Below are positions 1 through 52,423 of a stretch of DNA of 64,000 nucleotides, in pieces; position 1 is the stretch's first letter, and each line of letters begins with the position of its first letter. The stretch spans positions 19,277 through 83,276 of the forward strand of contig MHJY01000005.1 of assembly GCA_001818235.1 (NCBI GenBank), written 5' to 3'. The notes beneath the pieces were generated by a model that made no database searches, was not told the DNA's origin, and saw only the letters and a list, made by a program, of their open reading frames with translations. The translations under genes were made by a program, and so were the position numbers. Source of the DNA: Candidatus Jacksonbacteria bacterium RIFOXYB2_FULL_44_15. Lineage in GTDB: Bacteria > Patescibacteriota > Patescibacteriia > UBA9629.

Positions 1-87
1 CAATAATTCGAGCGATTTCTCATCGCCTTTTAGATATTTTTTGATTAATTGGGCGTCACTCGACACATCTGTCGTTACAGTAGACAT
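1..87 (-). CDS. 5' end of a gene running off the left edge. Its N-terminus MSTVTTDVSSDAQLIKKYLKGDEKSLELL resembles the start of sigma-70/ECF-type sigma factors. Partial.
   Basis: ATG at 85-87 on the minus strand, open to the window edge. Only 29 codons are visible. Confidence 0.3.
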   Translation of the reverse strand, partial: MSTVTTDVSSDAQLIKKYLKGDEKSLELL

Positions 88-143
88 AGAGACATAATAT
101 CAATAAACCTCCCGCTATCAATCGTATTCATTATATAATACGC

Positions 144-2426
144 TTATTTTTTAACTGTTGTTTCAAAAGAAAGGCGGGCAAAAAGGTAAGAAATTGTAGA
201 TTCAGCGCCCTGGTTTAGGTTAATAAATTTCTCCCCAATCCCATCATAACAGCCTCCAGTAGTCTGATCATAGACTACTTGCCCAAGAACATTGTCCCCC
301 AGAAACCAGTTAAACGCAATGTTCGCAAATTCTCCGTAATGCTTTTTTTTTGTCACTTGAAACATTAGATTGAGAGCTTCTACGGTGGCGGTGGCGTCTT
401 CCGGTTGCTGGTCAAAATACTGTCTGACCCCTGTCTTGGGAAACCAGCCACTTTGCCCGATAGGAATATACATATTGTTTTTAAAGGTATGCTTAATTAA
501 GAAGTTGAGGGTTATTTCCGACACTTTAAGATATTTTTTTTCGCCGGTTATTTTGTACCCGAGGAGGAGCGCTTCCGGCAGAATAGCATTTGAATATGTT
601 AAATAATGCTCAAACCATTCCCAGTCCGAAGAGTGGCTGTTTTCGTACAATGTGATCAACTGTTCACAACAGTTCCTTAATACAGCGAGATTCTTGGGTT
701 CTTTGTTTACTTCGCCGAAGTTGCTACGAAGGCGAGGCCGTTTTGAAAGCAGGCAATAAAGAGCCTTGATGTAAAAAGCGATTGCCCGCGGCGAGGAGAA
801 AGTAATATTGTTCTGGAAACTTTGTTCAAAAAGAGCATGAGCTTGTTTTCTAAAGTGTTTAGGTAGTTGTTTGGTAGTAGAAACTAAGGCGAGAGCATAG
901 AGCGCCCGGGCGCTGGGATCTTCGGAACTTTCCTGGACATTTTTTTGCTTATCTATATCGCGGTTCGAATTTACATAATTGTCAAAATAACCGTCAGGTT
1001 TAGCGACATGATTTATAAAATTAAAATATATCGAGGCGAGTTTTAGCGCGGTGCGGGTCCTAAATTTTTTGTAATAAAGCGCGACCGCAATTAAAGCACG
1101 GGCATTATCATCTAAAGTATATCCGGAAGATATATCTGGTTCGGTCAGCTTGGCAAACTGAATAATGCCAAAATCATCAGTTAATTTAGCCAAATGTTCA
1201 AGTTTTATCGGTGGAAGTTTTCTTTGTCCCAGAGTCAGCTCCGGCGCGAATCGTGAGAAATATTTTACGTAGGAATTGGCAACATTTTCCCATGTCATAT
1301 GCCTGGTGCGGAAATAAGCGTTTTTGCCCATTTGCAAGCACAATTCATTATTACTTACTAATTTTATGATCGCATCCGTATAAGCCTGTGGGTTTTTTAT
1401 ATCCACCAATAAGCCGACCTCATTGGTAATGTCTTGTTTGGCGTGAGCAAAGGCGGTGGATATAACCGGCCGGCCGCTACCAAGGGCGCAAGATAAAGTG
1501 CCGGAGACAGCTTGGTCAGGATTTATGGAAGTGGAAAGATAAACGTCAGTCGCCTCTAAAAATCGGCGGAGTTTTTTTACGTCAGAATAGGTATTATAAA
1601 AACGAACGTGATTGGTTAAACCAAGCTGGCGTACTTTTTTAATCAGAAAATTACGGTAGATTTCGCCTTCCTGTTCCAGAACAGCCGGATGAGTGATGCC
1701 GGCGATAAAAAATCGAACATTAGGGAATTTTTCTACCACCAAGGGCAGTGCCTCGATTACATATTCAATCCCTTTGCCAGGGCTAAGAAATCCAAAGGTC
1801 GAGAGAATTATGTTGCGAGATATGCCGCGGGCAGACTTGGCGCGCGCGCTGGTTCTATAAGGAACATGATGGATTCCATGTGGAATAACTTGAATTCGGT
1901 CAGGATCTAACCCATAATCCCGCTGGAGAATTTTTTTGGAAAATTCGGTCATGACGATTATTCCTTTCGAATATTTCATTATTTTTTGAACAATGTCGCG
2001 CATTTTTTCGACTGGAGCAGGAAGAACAGTGTGCATGGTAGTAACAACCGGTTTGCGAAGTTTTTCCAAAAAAAGCAGTAAATGTGATCCATATTCCCCG
2101 CCAAAGAGACCGAATTCATGTTGAATGTTGATTAGATGTACCTTTTTGAGCCGATTAAGTTTGTTGGCGGCGTTAACATAGTCTTCTTCGCGCGGCTGGC
2201 TTATCTGGAGAATTACTTTATTAGAATAGGGGAGATGGCTTACTTCCGTACGATTCAGCGCGACAATTTTTGATTTAACCGACTGTCCAAACATTTTATC
2301 AACAGCATTGCTAAGATCAGCGGTAAAGGTAGCGAGACCGCATCGTCTTGGCGGAAAGGTGGAGAGACAAACGATCCAACCTGCCTTGTTAGAAGTTTTT
2401 TTATTTGCTTTTGTTTGTTGAGTCAT
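144..2426 (-). CDS. Two-domain glycosyltransferase: an N-terminal GT4-type (GT-B) domain plus a ~370-aa C-terminal domain that looks like an (alpha/alpha)-toroid glycosidase-like module
   Basis: An STFPPRRCGLATF motif near the N-terminus is typical of GT4 enzymes, followed by a GIEYVIEAL...FFIAG core. The start is ambiguous: the track gives 2468, and Met15 at 2426 is preferred. Confidence 0.6.
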   Translation of the reverse strand: MTQQTKANKKTSNKAGWIVCLSTFPPRRCGLATFTADLSNAVDKMFGQSVKSKIVALNRTEVSHLPYSNKVILQISQPREEDYVNAANKLNRLKKVHLINIQHEFGLFGGEYGSHLLLFLEKLRKPVVTTMHTVLPAPVEKMRDIVQKIMKYSKGIIVMTEFSKKILQRDYGLDPDRIQVIPHGIHHVPYRTSARAKSARGISRNIILSTFGFLSPGKGIEYVIEALPLVVEKFPNVRFFIAGITHPAVLEQEGEIYRNFLIKKVRQLGLTNHVRFYNTYSDVKKLRRFLEATDVYLSTSINPDQAVSGTLSCALGSGRPVISTAFAHAKQDITNEVGLLVDIKNPQAYTDAIIKLVSNNELCLQMGKNAYFRTRHMTWENVANSYVKYFSRFAPELTLGQRKLPPIKLEHLAKLTDDFGIIQFAKLTEPDISSGYTLDDNARALIAVALYYKKFRTRTALKLASIYFNFINHVAKPDGYFDNYVNSNRDIDKQKNVQESSEDPSARALYALALVSTTKQLPKHFRKQAHALFEQSFQNNITFSSPRAIAFYIKALYCLLSKRPRLRSNFGEVNKEPKNLAVLRNCCEQLITLYENSHSSDWEWFEHYLTYSNAILPEALLLGYKITGEKKYLKVSEITLNFLIKHTFKNNMYIPIGQSGWFPKTGVRQYFDQQPEDATATVEALNLMFQVTKKKHYGEFANIAFNWFLGDNVLGQVVYDQTTGGCYDGIGEKFINLNQGAESTISYLFARLSFETTVKK

Positions 2427-3441
2427 AGGGAGCTTTTTTGAGTTCTGCCAACAGTTCGTCGAGATCAACCGATTTGGCGGCGATTAGCTTGTCGGCGGCT
2501 CCATAATAAATGTAAAGTCTTTTATCTTGCACCACTGCTCCGGTAGGAAAGACAACGTTATTAACGACGCCTTTTTTTTCCCAATCAGCTTCCGGGGAAA
2601 ACAGGGGCTCGGTTAATCGCCCTAAAACTTTCAGGGGATTTTTTAGATCAAGCAGGGCCGCGGTGGCATGATAGATTTTTCCGCGAGGGGAATTTTCCAC
2701 CCCGTGATAGATAAAAAGCCAGCCGTCTTTTGTTTCTATAGGCGGACAACCGCCGCCGATGTTATGGCTTTCAAACCAAAAGAGGGGATCAAGCACGATA
2801 AAATCATCTAAATTTTTTAAATGATCGCGCCAGTGATCTTCGGTAAATTCGGAGAAACTGTCAAAGTAAACAATTTGAATTCCCGGCAGAACGCGGTGGA
2901 TAAGAGCGAATTTATTATTGAATTTTTGGGGAAAGAGAGAGGCGTCTTTTTCGAACAGCAAAATATCTTCTCCGGCGCTTTCCTTGTAGATCGTTTCGAA
3001 CGTCGTATATTTATCTATGACTTTTGACTCGCGAAAATTGTCGCCTGCTTCTTGGTAAGAAATTTTCGGCGAGATCAGGCCCTGTTTGGCGAAGTGTGTA
3101 AGATCTTTACTTGTGGCGTAGGCAATCAGAGCGTTTTTGCCGTCATAGGCAGTGTAGAAAAGATAGTACGTTCCCTCTAATAGAGTGATTCTGGGATCTT
3201 CGACGCCCCTTTTTTCGTAATCATATTCCGGGCATAGAATCGGCTTGGTAAGTCTTTTGACAACTTTATCATTTTGGAGCTGGCAGTAGCCGATGGAAGA
3301 AACGTTATTCTGGCTAACTGCCCGATAGAACATATGAGTGATGCCATCTATCTGGATGCAGGCCGGGTTTAAAACGCCCTTATTTTCGAATTCCAGCTCT
3401 GTTTTTTCAATTATTATTCCTTCGTTTTTAACTGCGATCAT
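2401..3441 (-). CDS. GH130-family glycoside phosphorylase / DUF377-type beta-propeller glycosidase
   Basis: The N-terminal GVLNPA and the overall pattern fit GH130. It is co-oriented with the GT4 gene and overlaps it. Confidence 0.6.
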   Translation of the reverse strand: MIAVKNEGIIIEKTELEFENKGVLNPACIQIDGITHMFYRAVSQNNVSSIGYCQLQNDKVVKRLTKPILCPEYDYEKRGVEDPRITLLEGTYYLFYTAYDGKNALIAYATSKDLTHFAKQGLISPKISYQEAGDNFRESKVIDKYTTFETIYKESAGEDILLFEKDASLFPQKFNNKFALIHRVLPGIQIVYFDSFSEFTEDHWRDHLKNLDDFIVLDPLFWFESHNIGGGCPPIETKDGWLFIYHGVENSPRGKIYHATAALLDLKNPLKVLGRLTEPLFSPEADWEKKGVVNNVVFPTGAVVQDKRLYIYYGAADKLIAAKSVDLDELLAELKKAPYDSTNKSK

Positions 3442-7722: not shown

Positions 7723-7790
7723 AAATATATGGTTATCATAGCGGATTTTACTTGGGCGGGCAAGATGTGGTATATTGGAAATGTCAAAAT

Positions 7791-9107
7791 ATGTCATCAC
7801 TTCTTATTAAAAACGCCACATTAGCCAGCGGCCAAATCGTCAACATCTTTATCAAAGACGGGTTGATTTATGATATCGGTAACAAGTCGCCGTTGTGTGA
7901 TCAAAAAATCGATGCCCAAGGGCAATCAATAATTCCTGGGGTGATTGATCCACACGTTCATTTTCGCGTGCCAGGGGCTGAATATAAAGAAGATTGGCAA
8001 ACCGGCTCAAAAGCGGCGGTGGCTGGCGGTGTCACCACTGTTCTGGATATGCCAAATAACCAGCCAGCCATCACAACTCAAAAAACCTTAGATCAAAAAC
8101 GTCGTTTAATCAAAAATCAAAGTTACGTTAATTATGGTTTGTATCTTGGCGCGACTGCGTCAAATTTAAATGAACTCAAAACGGTTTCAGGCATCGCTGG
8201 AGTTAAAGTTTATTTAGGCAGTACGACCGGTGATTTGTTGGTCACAGATTACCAAATAGTTGAGGAAATTTTAGCTGAGACAAATCAAATAATCGCTTTT
8301 CATAGCGAGGACGAAGAGTGCATCAAGCAATTTTCAATTTTCCCACCAAGAAGGCGGGCAGGCAATTTTCAATTTTCAAACATAGCGAAGCGGCACAATC
8401 AACTACGTCCAGAAGAGTGTGCGGAAAAATCAACCGGCAAAATCATTGAGTTAGTAAAAAAAACCAAAAAGCGCGCTTATATTTGCCATGTTTCCGGTCA
8501 AAAAGAAATCGAGCTGATTAGGCAAGCCAAAGATCAAAAGTTACCGATATACGCGGAAGCTTCGCCGCATTATTTATTTTTAAATACGCAGTCAGCCATT
8601 GATTTAGGCAATTTCGCCAAAGTTAATCCGCCGATTCGTTCGGAAGTGTCCCAGCAAGCTCTCCAGCTGAGTCTTTCAAGCGGCTTAATTGATACCATTG
8701 GCTCTGATCACGCGCCGCATACCAGGGAAGAAAAAGAGGTTGATTACGCCCAAGCGCCGGCTGGCGTCCCAGGGGTTGAGACATCATTGTCCTTGATGCT
8801 AAATCTGGTCAATCAGGGGGCGATTACTTTGGCCAGACTGGTCGAGTTGATGTGTTCCACACCGGCGGATATTTTTAAAATAAGCAAGCGCGGAAAAATT
8901 GAACCCGGTTATTTTGCGGATTTGGTTTTAGTTGATCTTAAGTTGACTTATGAGGTTAAAAACAGTAAACTGTATAGTAAATGCGGGTGGTCGCCGTTTT
9001 CCGGCAGGCATTTAAAAGGCGTTCCGATGGCGGTGATTGTCGGTGGCCGATTAGTTTATCAAAAAGGGAAAATATTTGGGCCGCCCGGCGGATGCGAGGT
9101 TTTTTGA
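7791..9107 (+). CDS. pyrC: Dihydroorotase (amidohydrolase superfamily)
   Basis: DPHVHFRVPG metal-binding motif, ...CHVSG..., DHAPH. Start taken at MSSLLIKNATLASG (ATG 7791). Confidence 0.8.
   Translation: MSSLLIKNATLASGQIVNIFIKDGLIYDIGNKSPLCDQKIDAQGQSIIPGVIDPHVHFRVPGAEYKEDWQTGSKAAVAGGVTTVLDMPNNQPAITTQKTLDQKRRLIKNQSYVNYGLYLGATASNLNELKTVSGIAGVKVYLGSTTGDLLVTDYQIVEEILAETNQIIAFHSEDEECIKQFSIFPPRRRAGNFQFSNIAKRHNQLRPEECAEKSTGKIIELVKKTKKRAYICHVSGQKEIELIRQAKDQKLPIYAEASPHYLFLNTQSAIDLGNFAKVNPPIRSEVSQQALQLSLSSGLIDTIGSDHAPHTREEKEVDYAQAPAGVPGVETSLSLMLNLVNQGAITLARLVELMCSTPADIFKISKRGKIEPGYFADLVLVDLKLTYEVKNSKLYSKCGWSPFSGRHLKGVPMAVIVGGRLVYQKGKIFGPPGGCEVF
8327..8377. repeat. 16-bp perfect direct repeat GCAATTTTCAATTTTC x2 flanking the GC-rich core CCACCAAGAAGGCGGGCAG, embedded in frame in pyrC
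   Basis: Seen directly. It encodes the atypical pyrC segment FSIFPPRRRAGNFQFS. The core shares GGCGGGCAGGC with elements at 45611-45657 and 44941-44971. Confidence 0.45.
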
Positions 9108-9555: not shown

Positions 9556-9954
9556 ATGAAGGACAATTGGTATGTGGTTTTACTATGGCTTTCCGGTGCG
9601 ATCAGTTGGTTGCTTTTTGGCGCAGTGGTAATTTTTATCGGACCGGACGAATTGGGCATTTGGAGCAGATTTTTATTTTTGGTTACCAGCACCTTGGCAA
9701 ATTTTACTTTTTGGCTTATAATCCTTTATTATTTACGCGTTAAACTGCTCCGCTTCCAACCGGTTTTTCGACAATTTCATATCATTTTTCGGGAAAGTAT
9801 TTTGCTGGCCGGGTTATTTGCGGCAAGTTTATGGCTTTCACATTATGGTCGAATGAGTTTTTTTTATTTTTTGCTGATGTTTTTAATTATAGCGGGGATT
9901 GATCTGTTTTTTATTCTTTCTTATGACCAGCGACGTTATAAAAAAATTAAATAA
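9556..9954 (+). CDS. Small integral membrane protein (about 4 TM helices), unknown function
   Basis: Hydrophobic segments. Starts 3 nt after the receiver gene. Confidence 0.4.
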   Translation: MKDNWYVVLLWLSGAISWLLFGAVVIFIGPDELGIWSRFLFLVTSTLANFTFWLIILYYLRVKLLRFQPVFRQFHIIFRESILLAGLFAASLWLSHYGRMSFFYFLLMFLIIAGIDLFFILSYDQRRYKKIK

Positions 9955-10981
9955 AATTTACGCTGAAGCACTGGAAGAGGTGGGTAAAGGCAAGTTGTAT
10001 GCGCAGCGTAGAGTAGAATTGGAAATCAAATACCTTGGCCGAAAGGGTAAACTTAATGATGTCTTCAAAGAGATGGCGGTTTTAAGTGATAGCGCCAGAA
10101 AAGAAGTAGGCGTTTTGGCCAATAAATTAAAAAGTGATTTAAAATTGCAGTTGGGGCAGGCGCAGTTGCAGAACAAAAAAAGTGCCACGACTATAACTTT
10201 TGACGAGACAATCCCCGGCGCTCGGCCAAAGATCGGCAGTTTGCATCCGATAACGCAATTTTTGGAACGGATCATGGCTGTTTTTAGCACGCTCGGTTTT
10301 GAAATCGTCGAAGATCGCGAGGTGGAAACGACTGTTTATAACTTTGATAAATTAAATATTGCCTTCGACCACCCGGCCCGCGATATGTGGGATACGTTTT
10401 ATATAAAAATAAAAAATAAAAAAGAAAAAATAAAAAATAAGGAAGAATCATCTCTGGTTTTGCGGACGCATACTTCGCCGGTGCAAATTAGGGCGATGGA
10501 AAAACGCCGGCCGCCGGTTCGCTTGGTGGTGCCCGGGCGCGTTTACCGCCACGAAGCCACAGACGCTTCCCACGAGACTAATTTTTATCAATTAGAAGGA
10601 CTGGTAATTGACCGCAATATCTCGGTTGCGAACATGATATATGTTTTACACACGGTGTTGAAGCAATTATTTGGAGATAAAGTCAAGATTCGCATTCGAC
10701 CAAGTTTTTTCCCTTTTGTTGAGCCAGGCCATGAGGTGGATATGAGTTGTATTATTTGTGAACAAAAAGGTTGTTCGGTTTGTAGCGGCACTGGTTGGCT
10801 GGAAATGCTGGGCGCTGGCATGGTTCACCCGGTAGTTTTAAAGAATATGAAAGTCGATCCTGATAAATATTCTGGCTTTGCTTTTGGCATGGGCGTTGAT
10901 CGGCTAATAATGCTATATCACGGGATTAACGACATTCGATTGTCGTATTCCGGTGATTTGCGTTTTCTCAAACAGTTTTAA
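9923..10981 (+). CDS. pheS: Phenylalanine--tRNA ligase alpha subunit
   Basis: FDHPARDMWDTFY, RTHTSPVQIRAM, class II motifs. Start at MTSDVIKKLNK. Contains a 14-aa K-rich insertion encoded by an (AAAAAT)n tract. Confidence 0.9.
   Translation: MTSDVIKKLNKIYAEALEEVGKGKLYAQRRVELEIKYLGRKGKLNDVFKEMAVLSDSARKEVGVLANKLKSDLKLQLGQAQLQNKKSATTITFDETIPGARPKIGSLHPITQFLERIMAVFSTLGFEIVEDREVETTVYNFDKLNIAFDHPARDMWDTFYIKIKNKKEKIKNKEESSLVLRTHTSPVQIRAMEKRRPPVRLVVPGRVYRHEATDASHETNFYQLEGLVIDRNISVANMIYVLHTVLKQLFGDKVKIRIRPSFFPFVEPGHEVDMSCIICEQKGCSVCSGTGWLEMLGAGMVHPVVLKNMKVDPDKYSGFAFGMGVDRLIMLYHGINDIRLSYSGDLRFLKQF
10403..10440. repeat. (AAAAAT)n hexanucleotide tract inside pheS, encoding KIKNKKEKIKNK
   Basis: Seen directly. 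In-frame low-complexity insertion between the TFY and LRTHTS motifs. Confidence 0.6.
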
Positions 10982-24301: not shown

Positions 24302-27300
24302 CTAAATAGCGCTATCAGGGCAAATATTTTTAAAATCGCAAAATTGACAGACGTGCCGATTCGGGGTGGCCTTAAAATCGCGCTGTTTGATTTTTTGCGC
24401 GGCGACGATTAATTTATTTTTAACTTTTTCCATTTCATTCTCGGTACCGATAAAAGAGACACTCCCCTGTTGTAGGTGGTTCAGGTGATAAAAAGTCAAT
24501 TTTTTTGGTGGCGGATTATGATGAGCTAAGGCAATTTGATAAAGCAAGAGTTGTATTTTATCAGCCAGAACCGGTTTGGGATTTAATTTTCCGGTTTTAT
24601 AATCGATAATTTCAATCCCAGAAGCGTCAGGCAGTAAATCGATCCGATCGATCCGGCCCTTGAAGGCAAACTGGTCTAATTTAACGCGAAAATCTTCTTC
24701 CAGATAACGCGGTCGCGGCCAGTTAGCATGGTGCTGATTATAAAATTCTCGCAGAATTTTTTTTCCGGCCGCTAAGTAATCTTGTTTTTGCTGCGCTGTT
24801 TCAAACCAATCATCCTGCCAATTTTTAGCGTATATATTCATAATTTCCGCCAGCGTGATCAACTCCTGATCTTTCGGCGCGACTCCAGTTGCCCCAAATA
24901 AAGAGCTTTGGCTGGCATGGCAACGCATGTTAGTTAGTCGAAATATGGCTAACATCGTCTGGTGCATGGTGCGGCCAAAAGATAGCGTGGCTTTGCCTTT
25001 GTCCTGCGGAATTTTCAGAATGAATTGGTATTTATACTGTAAAGGGCATTTTTCATAAGCCGCGATCTGCGAATAGCTGAATTCCTTAGGTAAAGGGTAA
25101 ATAAATGGCTGGACAGTCGTGTCAGTCTCCAAAGCGGGTCGCAGAAATCCGGCTAAACCGTCATCCTGCCTTAGTTGATCGCCGGACTTTAAAATTTGCG
25201 TTTCAAACAAGAATAGAGATGGCTTAGTTTGACGACGGCCGCCATAATCGAGCGCGCAGGTTAAAAACAGACCGCGTTTGGCCCGGGTCAGCCCGACATA
25301 AAACAAACGGCGCTCTTCTTCAAGGTGTTCATCGCCTTCCGGCAAAATCTCCTTTTCTTTTATTAAGTCAGTCGGCAATTCAATCGCGTCTCCGCGGTTA
25401 ATTGTCGGAAAACGGAGATGGGCTAATCCCGGAATAAAAACATATTTGAATTCCAGTCCTTTAGCGCTGTGGATAGTCATAATTTTAAGCGCTTCCGGAC
25501 CAATATCCTCGACATTATAATTTAAGGCGCCAGTATCGCCAGCTTCCCGCACTAAATTGATGTGCTCAATAAAACCTTTGAGCGAGCGGTCATCATATAT
25601 TTGGCTGTATTCAACGCATTTTTTTAAAAATTGTTTTATAAGCTGGCACTGGGCGCGAGCCTTGGCCGGGGCGGTTTGTTCTAGCGCTAGGATGTGCTCG
25701 CGGTAGCGCGTATCGTGCAGAATTTTAACTAACATTTCAGTCGCGGCTAAGTTTTGACAGACTTTAGCATTGGCGACTAATTGGCTCATGATTTGTTCAA
25801 TCTTTGTTACCGCGTCAACCGTCATCTCTGGTATGGCGCGAACGTTATCCAGAGACTCTTGAAAAGTCCATTTTTTACGGTTGTGCCAGTAATTCAATTT
25901 GAGCAGATCAGCTTCCGGCAAATCAAAACCCGGAATAGCTAAAACTCGGGCCAAAGAAATTGAATCGGCCGGATCTAAGAGCGCGCGGCAATAGGCAAGC
26001 AGATCATTAATCACCGGCTGCAAAAACAAGCCCTGGCTAGCGACAAATAAATATGACATTTTGGCCTGTTCCAGCGCGTTTTTAAACAGGTCAGCTTGGC
26101 GGTTAGCGCGAAGTAAGATGGCGAAATCATTTAAGTTAGTTTCCCTGTCCGACAACAAGCAAGACTGAATTTTGGCGATGATAAAGCTAACTTCGGCCAG
26201 TTCATCGCGACAGAGTTTGAATTCGATTTGGCCTGCCAAGCTGGCGGGCAGGCCGGCGTCGGGAGTGGCGGCGAATAGTTTTTTATCTATTTTTTCAGTT
26301 TTTAAGCCAACCGCCTGACTATAATATTTATCCGGATGATTCAGCTGAAATTCCAGACGATCCGGATTATTATGCTGGATAAAATTATACGCCAGATCAA
26401 GGATATTCTGGCTGGAGCGGTAATTCGCAGTCAGCACGATTTTTTTGGCCGCCGGAAAATCGCGCTTGAAGTTTAAAATATTGCTGACCGAAGCGCCGCG
26501 GAATTTAAAAATCGATTGATCATCGTCGCCAACCACAGTCAGATTGCTCTGGGGATTAGTAAGACATTTAATTAATTGATACTGCGCCAAATTAGTATCC
26601 TGAAATTCATCAATCAAAATATATTTGAACTGTTGCTGATAATTGGCCAAAATATTTGGTCGGTCAGCGAACAGTTTGTTGGTGTAATAAATCAGATCGC
26701 CAAAATCCAATAAATTATTATCAACGAGCAATTGTTGATACTGAAAATAAGCGCTGGCTGTTTCCATAATTTGTTTAGCTCCGAGCGTTGCCGGAGTGTC
26801 GCCAGCCATCGTATTATCCTGATTAGCAGTTAGATTTTCCGCGTAGCGTAAATATTCAGCCGGAGTAATACCTTCGTCTTTGAGGCGCGAGAATAATTTG
26901 ATTAAAGCGTGAATAAATTTAGTCGGATTACCCAGCGGCCGGTAATAATCAAGATTAAATTTATGAAGATTTTTTCGAATGAGTAGCCAGCTGTCAGTGG
27001 TGGCGAGTAAACGGAAGTCCGGCGTCAGGCCGATATCCAAGGCGTGGAGCTCCAGAATCCGCTGGCCAAAGCTGTGAAAAGTGGAAATCCACAGGTCAAA
27101 TAAGCCATAAGGCACAAGTTTATCCACTCGCTCCTCCATCTCAGTCGCGGCTTTGTCGGTAAACGTCAACGCCAAAATTTCAGTCGGTTTAGCCAAACTC
27201 TGTTCAATCAGCCAGGCGATTTTATGCGTAATGACCGTGGTTTTACCAGTGCCAGCGCCGGCGATGATTAACAATGGGCCATTAGTATAAGTAACAGCTT

Positions 27301-27346
27301 TATGTTGTTCTTGGTTGAGTGATTGGAGAAGAGATGTACTTGACAT
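24302..27346 (-). CDS. UvrD/PcrA-family SF1 helicase fused to a C-terminal RecB/Cas4-like PD-(D/E)xK nuclease with a 4-Cys (Fe-S-type) signature
   Basis: GAGTGKTTV (Walker A). The C-terminus has IDRID...IDYKTGK...LLLYQ nuclease motifs, plus Cys in CPLQY and CQFCDFKNIC (C-x2-C-x5-C). Confidence 0.8.
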   Translation of the reverse strand: MSSTSLLQSLNQEQHKAVTYTNGPLLIIAGAGTGKTTVITHKIAWLIEQSLAKPTEILALTFTDKAATEMEERVDKLVPYGLFDLWISTFHSFGQRILELHALDIGLTPDFRLLATTDSWLLIRKNLHKFNLDYYRPLGNPTKFIHALIKLFSRLKDEGITPAEYLRYAENLTANQDNTMAGDTPATLGAKQIMETASAYFQYQQLLVDNNLLDFGDLIYYTNKLFADRPNILANYQQQFKYILIDEFQDTNLAQYQLIKCLTNPQSNLTVVGDDDQSIFKFRGASVSNILNFKRDFPAAKKIVLTANYRSSQNILDLAYNFIQHNNPDRLEFQLNHPDKYYSQAVGLKTEKIDKKLFAATPDAGLPASLAGQIEFKLCRDELAEVSFIIAKIQSCLLSDRETNLNDFAILLRANRQADLFKNALEQAKMSYLFVASQGLFLQPVINDLLAYCRALLDPADSISLARVLAIPGFDLPEADLLKLNYWHNRKKWTFQESLDNVRAIPEMTVDAVTKIEQIMSQLVANAKVCQNLAATEMLVKILHDTRYREHILALEQTAPAKARAQCQLIKQFLKKCVEYSQIYDDRSLKGFIEHINLVREAGDTGALNYNVEDIGPEALKIMTIHSAKGLEFKYVFIPGLAHLRFPTINRGDAIELPTDLIKEKEILPEGDEHLEEERRLFYVGLTRAKRGLFLTCALDYGGRRQTKPSLFLFETQILKSGDQLRQDDGLAGFLRPALETDTTVQPFIYPLPKEFSYSQIAAYEKCPLQYKYQFILKIPQDKGKATLSFGRTMHQTMLAIFRLTNMRCHASQSSLFGATGVAPKDQELITLAEIMNIYAKNWQDDWFETAQQKQDYLAAGKKILREFYNQHHANWPRPRYLEEDFRVKLDQFAFKGRIDRIDLLPDASGIEIIDYKTGKLNPKPVLADKIQLLLYQIALAHHNPPPKKLTFYHLNHLQQGSVSFIGTENEMEKVKNKLIVAAQKIKQRDFKATPNRHVCQFCDFKNICPDSAI

Positions 27347-44523: not shown

Positions 44524-45609
44524 ATGAGCATTAATACCGATATGGCGCAAAAGCCAAAATTGGTTGTTATTCTTGGGCCCACGGCTTCGGGCAAAACGAG
44601 CTTGGCACAGGCGTTGTGTCAAAAATTTTCCGGTTTTATTATTTCCGCTGATTCGCGGCAGGTTTATCGGTATTTGGATATTGGGACAGCAAAAGTAGAG
44701 ACGCCAGCTGATTTACAGTTTTTACGCCGGCAACGGCAAGAAAACTTGGCTGATGGTCGAATTTCCGCGGCAGAATATCTGATCGAGATGCGCGGAATCA
44801 ACAATTATATGATTGATCTGGTAGAGCCGAGTCAGGATTATAATGTGGCGCTGTATCAGAAGGATGTTTATAGCATTTTAATTTCTAATTTTCAATTTCT
44901 AATTTCTAATCAAATTTCAAATTTCAAATTTCAAATGCCTACCTTGCCAACTGGCAGGCGGCAGGCAGGTCAAAAGTCAAATATCTTTTTGGTGGGAGGG
45001 ACGGGTCTCTATATAGATGCGATTGTGGATAACTGGATGTTGCCGGCTGGTGAGCCAGATCTGAAGTTGCGCGAAGTGCTGGAGCGTGAGCTGGAACGCG
45101 ATGGACTTGAGACTCTCTATAATCGCTTGATTAAACTTGATCCAGATTGCGCGTCATTCATTCAAACTAAAAACCCGCGGCGAGTGGTGCGGGCTTTGGA
45201 ATATGTGCTTGCCACTGGAGGCAAATTTTCCGCTGGTCGAGGCAGATCAGAACGTCAATTTAATGTTTTAAAAATCGGTTTTGATTGGCCGAGGCAGGAA
45301 TTGTATCAGCGAATTGATGCCAGCGTGGAGGCGCGAATTAAACTTGGGATGATTGAAGAAGTCGAAGAACTGTTGAAAATGGATGGTTTGAGTTTTGAAC
45401 GTTTACAACAGTTTGGTTTGGAATATCGAGTGATATCAAATTATCTGATAGGAAAAAGCGGATCTTTAGCCGAGCTGATTCAACGGCTCAAATGGGACTC
45501 CCATGCTTATGCCCGTCGCCAGCTCACCTGGTTTCGGCGGGATAAGGAGATTCAGTGGGTCAAAAATGCGGCGGAAGCTGAGAAGTTAGTGGCGGAGTTT
45601 ATTAAATAG
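44524..45609 (+). CDS. miaA: tRNA dimethylallyltransferase
   Basis: LVVILGPTASGKTSLA...IISADSRQVYRYLDIGTAKV...VGGTGLYIDAIV. Contains a ~35-aa repeat-encoded insertion. Confidence 0.85.
   Translation: MSINTDMAQKPKLVVILGPTASGKTSLAQALCQKFSGFIISADSRQVYRYLDIGTAKVETPADLQFLRRQRQENLADGRISAAEYLIEMRGINNYMIDLVEPSQDYNVALYQKDVYSILISNFQFLISNQISNFKFQMPTLPTGRRQAGQKSNIFLVGGTGLYIDAIVDNWMLPAGEPDLKLREVLERELERDGLETLYNRLIKLDPDCASFIQTKNPRRVVRALEYVLATGGKFSAGRGRSERQFNVLKIGFDWPRQELYQRIDASVEARIKLGMIEEVEELLKMDGLSFERLQQFGLEYRVISNYLIGKSGSLAELIQRLKWDSHAYARRQLTWFRRDKEIQWVKNAAEAEKLVAEFIK
44876..44981. repeat. Heptanucleotide AATTTCN / ATTTCAA tandem tracts followed by a GC-rich GGCAGGCGGCAGGCAGG core, inside miaA
   Basis: Seen directly. 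Encodes ILISNFQFLISNQISNFKFQMPTLPTGRRQAGQKS between conserved MiaA blocks. Confidence 0.55.
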
Positions 45610-45610
45610 T

Positions 45611-45657
45611 GGCAAGTATCCCGCCTACGCAAAGGCTTCGGCGGGCAGGCAAGTATC
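45611..45657. repeat. Short element: direct repeats GGCAAGTATC x2 flanking the palindromic GC core CCGCC-tacgcaaaggcttcg-GCGGG, between convergent miaA and tatD
   Basis: Seen directly. Shares the AAGGCTTCGG core with 46332-46393 and 52322-52383, and GGCGGGCAGGC with the pyrC insert. Confidence 0.5.
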
Positions 45658-45666
45658 AAGAACTGG

Positions 45667-46596
45667 TTAATCTTTAATCAAGAAGAATTTTTCCCCATTT
45701 TTTTGCGTCATCTCAATAACTTCAGCCACGCTGATTTTTTTTATGGTAGCAATTTTTTCGGCGACATACTCTACATACAATGGTTCGTTGCGCTGGCCGC
45801 GAAAAGGTTCTGGACTTAAATACGGGCAATCGGTTTCGATCATTAACCGGTCAAGCGGAATTTGGCGGATCGCGTCAATCAAATAGTCGTTAACATTTTT
45901 ATAAGTGATAACGCCGGTTACAGAAATGTAAAAACCAATGTCCAGAAATTTTTGAATGTGCTCAAAGTCGGCTAAACAGCAATGGAGAACGCCGCGAATT
46001 CCGTCATTGCGAGGAATGAGCGAAGCGAATGACGAAGCAATCTCTGATTTTGGGATTGCTTCGCTACGCCTTTCGAACTCCGCTCGCAATGACCGTAACA
46101 AATCATCGTAAGCATCAAACGTATCACCCGTCGGACGGCAGTGAATGACTAAGGGTTTGTTAAGTTCATTAGCCAATTTAACGTGTTCGAGAAATAATTC
46201 GCGTTGAGCGTCATGGTTGTCAGCAACTCTATAATAATCAAGCCCAGTCTCCCCGATCGCCACGACTTTAGGATCACCGGCTAACTCTTTAAATTTTTGA
46301 TAGTCCCAAATGTGAGCCGGATTATTATTTGCATAGATTCCTGCTTTCCCTCCTTCGCACAAGGCTTCGGAAGGGCGCGGCGCAGGAATGACAGAGAGAT
46401 GTGTTGGATGCAAACCGACGGTCGCGAAAATCGGGTCATGTTTAAATTCTTGAGCGATGTCGACAGCTCGCTTCGACGTCGCAAACTCAGTTCCAACCAA
46501 ATTTAAAAACATCCCTTTGGCGAGGGATTTGGTTATTATTTTATGGTAATCTTGGGCGAAGGCTTTAAAGTTTAAATGAGCGTGGGTGTCGTACAT
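45667..46596 (-). CDS. tatD: TatD-family metal-dependent DNase/hydrolase carrying an in-frame 21-aa repeat-element insertion
   Basis: MYDTHAHLNF; ...VAIGETGLDYY. The insertion SVIPAPRPSEALCEGGKAGIY lies between the HP and VVAIGE blocks. Confidence 0.85.
   Translation of the reverse strand: MYDTHAHLNFKAFAQDYHKIITKSLAKGMFLNLVGTEFATSKRAVDIAQEFKHDPIFATVGLHPTHLSVIPAPRPSEALCEGGKAGIYANNNPAHIWDYQKFKELAGDPKVVAIGETGLDYYRVADNHDAQRELFLEHVKLANELNKPLVIHCRPTGDTFDAYDDLLRSLRAEFERRSEAIPKSEIASSFASLIPRNDGIRGVLHCCLADFEHIQKFLDIGFYISVTGVITYKNVNDYLIDAIRQIPLDRLMIETDCPYLSPEPFRGQRNEPLYVEYVAEKIATIKKISVAEVIEMTQKNGEKFFLIKD
46332..46393. repeat. 62-bp palindromic repeat element (copy A) inside the tatD CDS, in frame
   Basis: CATAGATTCCTGC...AAGGCTTCGGAAGGG...GCAGGAATGACA, with terminal inverted repeats. 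About 55/62 identical to copy C at 52322-52383. Confidence 0.65.
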
Positions 46597-52271: not shown

Positions 52272-52297
52272 TGTCATTCCCGCGCAGGCGGGAATCC
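52272..52297. repeat. Minimal inverted copy (C') of the palindromic element (TGTCATTCCCGC-gcag-GCGGGAATCC)
   Basis: Seen directly. 24 bp upstream of the full copy C. Confidence 0.5.
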
Positions 52298-52321
52298 AGT
52301 ATTTAATTTATCTATATAAGT

Positions 52322-52383
52322 CATAGATTCCCGCTTTCCCTCTTACGCTCAAGGCTTCGGAAGGGCATGGCGCGGGAATGACA
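52322..52383. repeat. 62-bp palindromic repeat element (copy C), intergenic
   Basis: CATAGATTCCCGC...AAGGCTTCGGAAGGG...GCGGGAATGACA. About 55/62 identical to copy A. Confidence 0.65.
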
Positions 52384-52423
52384 AAATACGTTAAAATCGA
52401 ATTTTGCGATATGCTCTTGGAAT

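Follow-up and report, generated by a model that had tools for sequence, protein, structure and literature searches.

What the dihydroorotase gene (pyrC) of Candidatus Jacksonbacteria bacterium RIFOXYB2_FULL_44_15, an ultra-small bacterium of the candidate phyla radiation (CPR), holds between two perfect 16-bp direct repeats, and whether the similar GC-rich segments in and behind its miaA gene are of the same kind, are the questions raised by this locus. The window is the whole stretch of DNA analysed, 64,000 nt of the forward strand of contig MHJY01000005.1 (positions 19,277 to 83,276), and the coordinates below are its own. An original prediction, made from the letters of this stretch, had assigned three sites, here called S1 (in pyrC), S2 (between miaA and a tatD-like gene) and S3 (in miaA), to one small mobile or duplicative family that generates target-site-like direct repeats and is tolerated inside essential genes. 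We read these sites, together with a fourth (S4) and two nested copies, as widespread, ultra-short, GC-rich palindromic modules behaving like non-autonomous selfish DNA of the kind of repetitive extragenic palindromes (REPs), small dispersed repeats (SDRs) and Rickettsia palindromic elements (RPEs), and we give this reading a probability of about 0.6. The kind of element is known; the family itself, its hairpin-in-heptamer design, its spread across phyla and its prevalence in CPR housekeeping genes appear to be undescribed, and our literature search on the sequence and on palindromic or heptameric CPR elements found no description matching the family.

Anatomy of the hairpin modules in the window

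In pyrC (open reading frame, ORF, 7752..9107, plus strand), the sequence GCAATTTTCAATTTTC is present perfectly at both 8327-8342 and 8362-8377 with a period of 35 bp, as originally described. The repeat lengthens to 19 bp with one mismatch when started at 8324/8359, and it is the longest close exact direct repeat of the window, an A-rich tract excepted. The two copies are translated as QFSIF and NFQFS, in different frames, because the pyrC product reads ...CIKQFSIFPPRRRAGNFQFSNIAK... across them. At S2, the 10-bp repeats GGCAAGTATC (45611-45620 and 45648-45657) enclose the GC-rich hairpin CCGCCTACGCAAAGGCTTCGGCGGGCA in the 57-nt spacer between the miaA stop codon (45607-45609) and a convergent tatD-like ORF ending at 45667, and at S3 8.4 tandem copies of AATTTCA (44880-44936) precede GCCTACCTTGCCAACTGGCAGGCGGCAGGCAGG and, behind it, TCAAAAGTCAAAT, the whole lying in miaA and encoding ISNFQFLISNQISNFKFQMPTLPTGRRQAGQKSN; the repeats behind miaA and the heptamer tract within it lie where they had been reported. 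The peptide stretches encoded by the inserts are FSIFPPRRRAGNFQFS and, for S3 in miaA, PTLPTGRRQAG. A simple tandem duplication of a 35-bp unit was rejected for S1, where the sequence past the second repeat differs from the spacer.

The "direct repeats" resolve into short tandem heptanucleotide arrays, with units CAATTTT at S1, CAAGTAT at S2 and CAAATTT/TCAAATG at S3, and a GC-rich palindrome of the form CCCGCC…GGCGGGCAGG, whose arms CCCGCC and GGCGGG are followed by CAGG, is placed exactly on a unit boundary. Tandem Repeats Finder reported period 7 at 8328-8342, 8363-8379 and 44880-44936, where the flanks consist of 7-nt units set head to tail. The insert proper comprises 21 nt at S1 (8342-8362), 30 nt at S2 (45620-45649) and 32 nt at S3 (44938-44969); it starts directly after a full heptamer in S1 and S2 and 6 nt into the unit in S3, which is laid out as …CAAATTT CAAATTT CAAATG, the 32-nt core and T CAAAAGT CAAATAT. 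Being in phase and built from one and the same unit left and right, these arrays speak against the notion of target-site-like repeats, as do two MiaA orthologues (L251 and L252) whose loops carry heptamers alone. The components, in the order in which they follow one another at each site, are as follows.

8328..8341, plus strand: S1 left heptamer array, CAATTTT twice; with G8327 and C8342 it makes up the 16-bp repeat
8342..8362, plus strand: S1 core CCCACCAAGAAGGCGGGCAGG, 21 nt or 7 codons, read PPRRRAG in pyrC; a decayed hairpin
8363..8383, plus strand: S1 right heptamer array, CAATTTT CAATTTT CAAACAT
26231..26251, plus strand: S4 21-nt insert, inside the hairpin GGCCTGCC-AAGCTGGCG-GGCAGGCC (26230-26254), without heptamers; read antisense as LPASLAG in a UvrD/PcrA-like ORF (24302..27346, minus strand)
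44875..44937, plus strand: S3 left heptamer tract in miaA, about 8 copies of TAATTTC / CAAATTT units with CAAATG at the end
44938..44969, plus strand: S3 GC core CCTACCTTGCCAACTGGCAGGCGGCAGGCAGG, encoding PTLPTGRRQAG; the most divergent copy, missing from MiaA orthologues
44970..44985, plus strand: S3 right heptamers, TCAAAAG TCAAATA TC
45613..45619, plus strand: S2 left heptamer, CAAGTAT
45620..45649, plus strand: S2 core CCCGCCTACGCAAAGGCTTCGGCGGGCAGG, 30 nt, the best-preserved copy; intergenic, where miaA and the tatD-like gene converge
45650..45663, plus strand: S2 right heptamers, CAAGTAT CAAGAAC
46348..46380, plus strand: nested family hairpin in the tatD-like gene, in the middle of a composite palindrome of 60 bp (46334-46393) that is in frame and encodes 21 aa
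52338..52370, plus strand: nested family hairpin inside an intergenic composite repeat (52273-52385)

The sequence GGCGGGCAGG is common to all copies in the window. With at most one mismatch, GGCGGGCAGGC has four matches in the window against 0.77 expected, a number reached in none of 100 shuffles, and S4 is a fourth exact copy (26243-26253) that was absent from the original list. A covariance model (CM) was built from 19 family members, among them S2 and both nested copies as training sequences; in its alignment 90% of the cells are paired, compared with 32-59% when the partner is slid, and three pairs are changed on both sides, giving modest covariation support for the hairpin. The model ranks S2 highest in the window (47.8 bits), followed by the nested copies at 46348 (31 bits) and 52338 (30 bits), S4 (17 bits, E 0.4), S1 (13 bits, E 2.5) and S3 (11.7 bits, E 4.2), which agrees with the assignment of the three original sites to one dispersed family and, since the last three score below the training copies, makes S1, S3 and S4 degenerate members. 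Folding energies point the same way for S2, which folds well (-7.3/-9.2 kcal/mol). The S1 arms CCCACC/GGCGGG pair fully only on the bottom strand, by way of a G.T pair (-4.6 kcal/mol, z -2.8; top strand -1.9 kcal/mol), and S3 folds no better than its shuffles. All nine CM matches in the window, the weak ones included, lie on the plus strand, the one richer in G through most of the window; this excess may be chance or a compositional effect, the unbiased metagenome set described below showing no such bias. In the composites at 52273-52385 and 46334-46393, the family hairpin, of the type CCCTC…CAAGGCTTCGGAAGGG, is central to an outer hairpin of the type GTCATTCC[CT]GCG…GC[GA]GGAATGACA.

Orthologous loops and independent assemblies

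Comparison of PyrC, MiaA and UvrD/PcrA-like helicase orthologues bore out the claim that the extra segments are lineage-specific. The PyrC loop that holds the insert varies among close orthologues, and in distant ones it has about 10 residues fewer. In the pyrC gene whose product is 64% identical (L001), the same loop consists of GCCAAATG, CCCCTCCAATAATGCGGCGGGCAGG and CAAATGT CAAATGT CAAAGAT; its 13-nt 3' core GGCGGGCAGG is that of the window but its heptamer, (CAAATGT)2, is different. Presence of the insert in orthologues of unrelated lineages, which the original prediction had named as the mark of an ancestral protein feature and as evidence against itself, was thereby half borne out: the L001 loop carries the GGCGGGCAGGCAA core, identical to the window at 13 of 13 positions compared with 67% identity in adjacent coding DNA, but the orthologue with 62% identity (L003) and all more distant ones are without the GC core. 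The GGCGGGCAGGCAA core is a DNA repeat, present between genes as well, and no conserved protein feature. Because the window, L001 and the element-free P0004 lineages form a near-trichotomy in the neighbour-joining tree, one gain followed by one loss is inseparable from two gains. In the AlphaFold2 model of PyrC (mean predicted local distance difference test score, pLDDT, 90.8), the sole segment below 50 is a coil that joins two helices, residues 185-193 (PRRRAGNFQ); the insert is thus predicted to be the only disordered loop of an otherwise confident model, in line with the proposed tolerance in housekeeping genes.

The MiaA loop ahead of the FLVGGTG motif is hypervariable across the Jacksonbacteria clade, and four lineages carry different hairpin variants in different heptamers. 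Besides the window, these are L004, with (CAATATC)3, a 36-nt hairpin (CCCGCCCGCC..GGGCAGG) and CAATATC; L005, with (CAAAGTG)2, a 36-nt hairpin and CAAAGTG CAAAGTT; and L006, with CATGTTC, a double hairpin and (CATGTTC)2. The L251 and L252 loops are heptamer arrays without a hairpin, the latter having (TCAAATG)3 in place of the TCAAATG, hairpin and TCAAAAG of the window, and three further proteins (P0148, P0149 and P0150) have neither heptamers nor hairpin. A second MiaA loop contains inserts as well: in L006 (1170-1290) its design is another one, made up of two copies of CAAAAAGTG, a perfect 10-bp hairpin (ACCTGGTCGC-ACAAG-GCGACCAGGT) and then CACAGTCT…CACAGTCT, and inserts are also found there in P0144, P0152, P0153 and P0155. 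The 7-residue (21-nt) S4 insert is missing from all nine helicase orthologues compared. Among helicase relatives, P0262, P0265 and P0270 bear heptamer-type peptide inserts (…IQNSKFKIQN…, …QIQNSKFKIPN…) in a loop other than that of S4.

The original prediction expected the repeats to survive re-assembly, and they do. The PyrC cluster at 90% identity comprises nine members, found on about 30 contigs of NCBI, ENA and JGI assemblies, with an identical insert in every member that covers the region; the exact MiaA protein occurs on 23 contigs, and a helicase variant at 99% identity retains S4. Since the insert-bearing PyrC, MiaA and helicase proteins recur in many independent assemblies, mis-assembly is excluded, and an assembly artefact or repeat collapse is ruled out by the identical inserts. 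Within the species, no variation in array length or hairpin presence was found in these 90% clusters, which are near-clonal.

Residence in housekeeping genes is not limited to the window. Elsewhere, host genes confirmed by Pfam encode a MurC-like ligase, ValRS, UvrC, DnaG, LigA, SecA, another Mur ligase, CysRS, TsaD and RecJ. All three reading frames of the family DNA are in use (…RLRQGFGGQA…, …ACAEDSAGRQ…, …PRLRRAGK…), and coding copies are bordered by 7-residue periodic peptides that stem from the heptamers. In a MurC-like gene of Saccharibacteria (L027), two tandem hairpin copies are separated by a single CAATTTC heptamer and translated as …PSFAKASAGRQFPRLRQSFGGQA….

Distribution of the family and its known counterparts

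The canonical form is CCCGCC-T[GA]CGCC[GA]AGGCTTC-GGCGGGCAGG, with members of 18 to about 40 nt. Scanning one genome per species with the pattern GGCGGGCAGGCAANNNNCAA gave at least 120 loci, with 121 matches among those listed, to which the following counts refer: about 48 combine a CCC.CC left arm with a host genome of less than roughly 53% GC, in about 30 one and the same heptamer (allowing one mismatch) directly adjoins either end, and the 30-mer CCCGCCTGCGCCGAGGCTTCGGCGGGCAGG is the modal core. Matches in high-GC genomes look like chance. The family is not limited to this genome but spread over the CPR and other phyla. At least 22 of the 80 titled loci belong to the CPR, the hosts including Saccharibacteria, Gottesman-, Levy-, Uhr-, Peregrini- and Dojkabacteria, Paceibacterota and Parcubacteria; outside it, copies were found in Omnitrophota, Desulfobacterales/Thermodesulfobacteriota, Opitutaceae, Neomarinimicrobiota, Bacteroidetes and Clostridia. 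A Paceibacterota locus (L028) shares 27 of the 30 core positions with S2, along with its CAAGTAT heptamers.

Because the genome pattern forces a heptamer-like right flank, the search was repeated in metagenomes with the core alone (CCGCCTRCGCCRAGGCTTCGGCGGGCAGG). The canonical 29-30-mer occurs on more than 100 metagenome contigs, which is a lower bound. Among the 92 listed copies with flanks long enough, 71 (~77%) are non-coding, 8 sense-coding and 10 antisense-coding, and 18-21 lie in long ORFs. No orientation bias was seen in this listed unbiased set, either against GC skew (31:30) or against neighbouring ORFs (18:20); strand-specific insertion relative to replication or transcription is not supported by these balanced counts, those of the coding copies included, and the sense bias of about 20:1 in the genome scan arose because its pattern forced CAANNNNCAA. 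Heptamers, where present, always keep to one side and one orientation relative to the hairpin, with units starting C-A/G-A after CAGG. At the junctions of the 109 copies listed, position -1 is C in 96%, and position +1 is C or T in 90% and never A. Many copies are central to larger palindromes or MITE-like repeats (MITE, miniature inverted-repeat transposable element), as in L051, in L132/L198 and at 46334 and 52273 of the window. The two inverted copies in L051, an Omnitrophica contig, were considered as ends of an insertion sequence with a transposase and proved to be 135-nt MITE-like repeats between nuo genes. Three copies of this repeat of about 135 nt lie within positions 1-3250, with the hairpin and TTGGTCA/TGACCAA heptamers, a unit that we take to be the cyanobacterial short tandemly repeated repetitive (STRR) sequence STRR2. 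In L220 the left flank of the hairpin fits one conserved context family and the right flank another (L149/L161 versus L132/L198), as if the two had been recombined at the hairpin. Phage carriage as the main vehicle was set aside, the core being found on just four contigs of the viral collection.

Several known groups of elements come close to this design. The SDR4-6 modules of Nostoc punctiforme and relatives, reportedly characterised by Elhai and colleagues in 2008, are said to be dispersed modules of about 21-27 nt, some of them hairpin-forming, that sit within tandem heptameric repeats, MITEs and each other, are non-coding and have a mobilising activity that is unknown. On that description, the family here shares the module of a few tens of nucleotides within heptameric repeats and the nesting in MITEs and other repeats; it differs in sequence, in hosts (CPR, Omnitrophota, Desulfobacterales and others instead of cyanobacteria) and in its frequent in-frame residence in housekeeping genes. 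The RPEs, by reports that go back to Ogata and co-workers in 2000, are palindromic selfish repeats of about 100-150 bp, confined to Rickettsia and without heptamer arrays, which are said to lie in frame in conserved genes and to be translated in parts of the surface where the fold allows it. The modules here likewise lie in frame at permissive sites of genes for conserved proteins, but length and consensus are not those of RPEs, the window cores measuring 21, 30, 32 and 21 nt and the family 18-36 bp. In eukaryotic organelles, the mobile GC clusters of yeast mitochondria, among them an optional one that lies in frame in var1, and the byps of Magnusiomyces are GC-rich palindromes of 30-50 bp in an A/T-rich background, with short A/T-rich flanking repeats and sometimes within coding sequence, and byps are skipped by the ribosome. 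The copies here, by contrast, are in frame and, judged from their reading frames, evidently translated.

MITEs have terminal inverted repeats of 15-30 bp, lengths of 70-300 bp and a target-site duplication of fixed length; the present arms are 6 bp, the length is 18-40 bp and a flanking 7-mer repeat accompanies 17 of 98 listed unbiased copies. REPs and the composite REPINs, which are mobilised by REP-associated tyrosine transposases (RAYTs), are GC-rich imperfect palindromes of 20-40 bp that are non-autonomous, reach high copy number and build composites (PMC3116915, PMC3733652). The present family is likewise a multicopy imperfect palindrome, GC-rich and 20-40 bp long, but it lacks a conserved unpaired GTAG/CGTC tag at the end of the hairpin (of the 109 listed copies, 2 contain GTAG and 6 CGTC in the 12-nt left flank), and its location is not strictly extragenic, with S1, S3 and S4 inside ORFs along with the metagenome copies in long ORFs. 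Moreover, the window copies are singletons, not inverted doublets, and a near-identical sequence spans phyla. Tandem heptanucleotide repeats, such as the cyanobacterial STRRs and TAACTGA of Beggiatoaceae (PMC4679880), are over-represented in certain bacteria and described as mostly intergenic. Units of the TTGGTCA/TGACCAA type adjoin the hairpin in L051, L084 and L089; those known arrays are described without an embedded conserved hairpin, unlike the arrays here.

Proposed origin, rival accounts and neighbouring repeats

In the mechanism that we propose, the module would be copied in trans into new sites, probably as a folded single strand or through a recombination or repair process. Its favoured context would be a unit boundary in A/T-rich tandem heptanucleotide arrays whose units start C-A/G-A, entered in a single relative orientation, which would give heptamers, hairpin and the same heptamers in succession. 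Such arrays may behave as unstable simple-sequence repeats, lengthened and shortened by slipped-strand mispairing, and because their length would change in this way the flanks could come to resemble long perfect direct repeats. In genes, the survivors would be stop-free, frame-keeping copies in permissive surface loops, subsequently translated and slowly decaying; …RRRAG…, …AGRQ… and …FGGQA… are the three frames of one DNA, and S1, S3 and S4 would be old degenerate copies fixed in this species. The heptamers themselves may be landing pads, footprints of 7-bp duplication or products of hairpin-stimulated slippage, the first of these being suggested by the orthologues with heptamers alone. A bolder version, in which an undescribed cross-phylum class of hairpin elements of about 30 nt, abundant in CPR/Patescibacteria, Omnitrophota and Desulfobacterales, integrates in fixed orientation at heptamer boundaries, or makes the arrays as footprints of repeated 7-bp-duplicating insertion and excision, and routinely reshapes surface loops of essential proteins in bacteria with reduced genomes, is held tentatively and seems to us doubtful.

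Several observations weigh against the selfish-module reading. The CM matches of S1 and S3 are weak and the S3 fold is at shuffle level, so their membership depends mainly on the common 3' core and the architecture. The heptamer association is inflated in the genome scan, since its pattern forced CAANNNNCAA on the right flank. In the unbiased search a flanking 7-mer repeat was present in those 17 of the 98 non-redundant metagenome copies listed (9 of them abutting), compared with 2 in the control; because of these numbers the family does not generally create direct repeats, and the original view of it as repeat-generating is not upheld. That the 29-mer is identical in hosts with a GC content of 32-66% could also mean strong functional constraint. 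No pair of filled and empty sites at high nucleotide identity was found, the inserts being present in every population variant of the species, which leaves transposition undemonstrated; nor did a candidate gene for mobilisation emerge, and no genome-wide RAYT search was made.

A rival account makes the hairpin a selected nucleic-acid signal, for instance one for RNA stability or processing, a terminator of non-canonical type, a site for protein binding or supercoiling as in REPs and bacterial interspersed mosaic elements (BIMEs), or a DNA-uptake-type sequence, with the coding copies as tolerated by-products. Such a role would suit the non-coding position of about 77% of the listed canonical copies, the place of S2 in the spacer of two convergent genes, the identity of the 29-mer in very different hosts and the better conservation of the GGCGGGCAGGCAA core than of adjacent coding DNA. 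It sits badly with S2 itself, which was rejected as a canonical intrinsic terminator: it is followed by CAAGTATCAAG and has no T-run, its full hairpin is not called, and the terminator scan gave only a partial 6-pair minus-strand stem there, with the number of calls at shuffle level. Nor is there an Rfam family match, Rfam 15 yielding only tRNA in the window at the gathering threshold and nothing at the elements of seven element-bearing loci at E<=1. The copies occur in both orientations without bias relative to neighbouring genes or GC skew, lie decaying in the disordered loops of essential ORFs (S1, S3) and are nested in other repeats as is typical of selfish modules, and we regard a signal as rather unlikely.

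Slippage without any mobile element, in which low-complexity loops grew by slippage and GC cores arose locally by quasi-palindrome or template-switch mutation and are alike by composition only, would explain the orthologues with heptamer-only loops and the lack of significant structure in S3, and heptanucleotide repeats are the commonest long bacterial simple-sequence repeats and thought to be born of slippage (PMC4679880). Local mutation, however, cannot make one sequence of 13-30 nt recur at loci, and in phyla, that are unrelated to each other, as the 27 of 30 core positions shared by S2 and the Paceibacterota locus with the same heptamer illustrate, and on this sequence evidence the account seems very improbable and is strongly disfavoured. 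That the segments are ancestral functional protein loops is harder still to credit: the 64% identical PyrC does bear an insert containing AAGRQ at the same position, but length and sequence differ among close orthologues, distant ones lack the segment, different proteins read the same DNA in three frames and antisense, this DNA also stands between genes at S2, and the loop is predicted to be disordered. Scarcely any weight goes to translational-bypass ("byp"-like) elements or assembly artefacts. GC-rich hairpins with matching flanks in an A/T-richer genome do recall the mitochondrial byps and gene 60 of phage T4, but the ORFs continue through the inserts without leaving the frame, a ribosome hopping from one repeat to the other, 35 nt on, would shift the pyrC frame, and identical sequences come from independent assemblies.

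If the selfish-module reading is true, one very small hairpin module has dispersed across many uncultivated phyla and is a recurrent source of loop insertions in CPR core enzymes, recognisable from …FGGQA…, …SAGRQ…, …LRRAGK… and 7-residue periodic peptides of the ISNFKFQ type. In annotation, such stretches would then be repeat DNA instead of protein motifs, and the loops that bear them would have to be masked in CPR marker alignments and phylogenies. It would also bear on how streamlined genomes tolerate selfish DNA, and the fixed hairpin-heptamer arrangement could offer a handle on the origin of bacterial heptanucleotide arrays and on the mobilisation of repeats too small for MITEs.

Two further repeats were noted in the window. 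At 46003-46093 the tatD-like gene contains a second palindromic repeat of 91 bp, in frame (GTCATTGCGAGGAATGAGCGAAGC…GATTGCTTCGCTACGCC…CTCGCAATGAC), which encodes …AIPKSEIASSFASLIPRNDG… and is lacking in the L004 orthologue; since this repeat is unrelated to the family, the gene holds two different palindromic inserts. A PheS-like ORF (9899..10981) carries an A-rich array of period 7/21 at 10405-10447 (AAAAATA five times), encoding …IKIKNKKEKIKNKEE…, which is a further heptamer tract in an essential gene, here without a hairpin.

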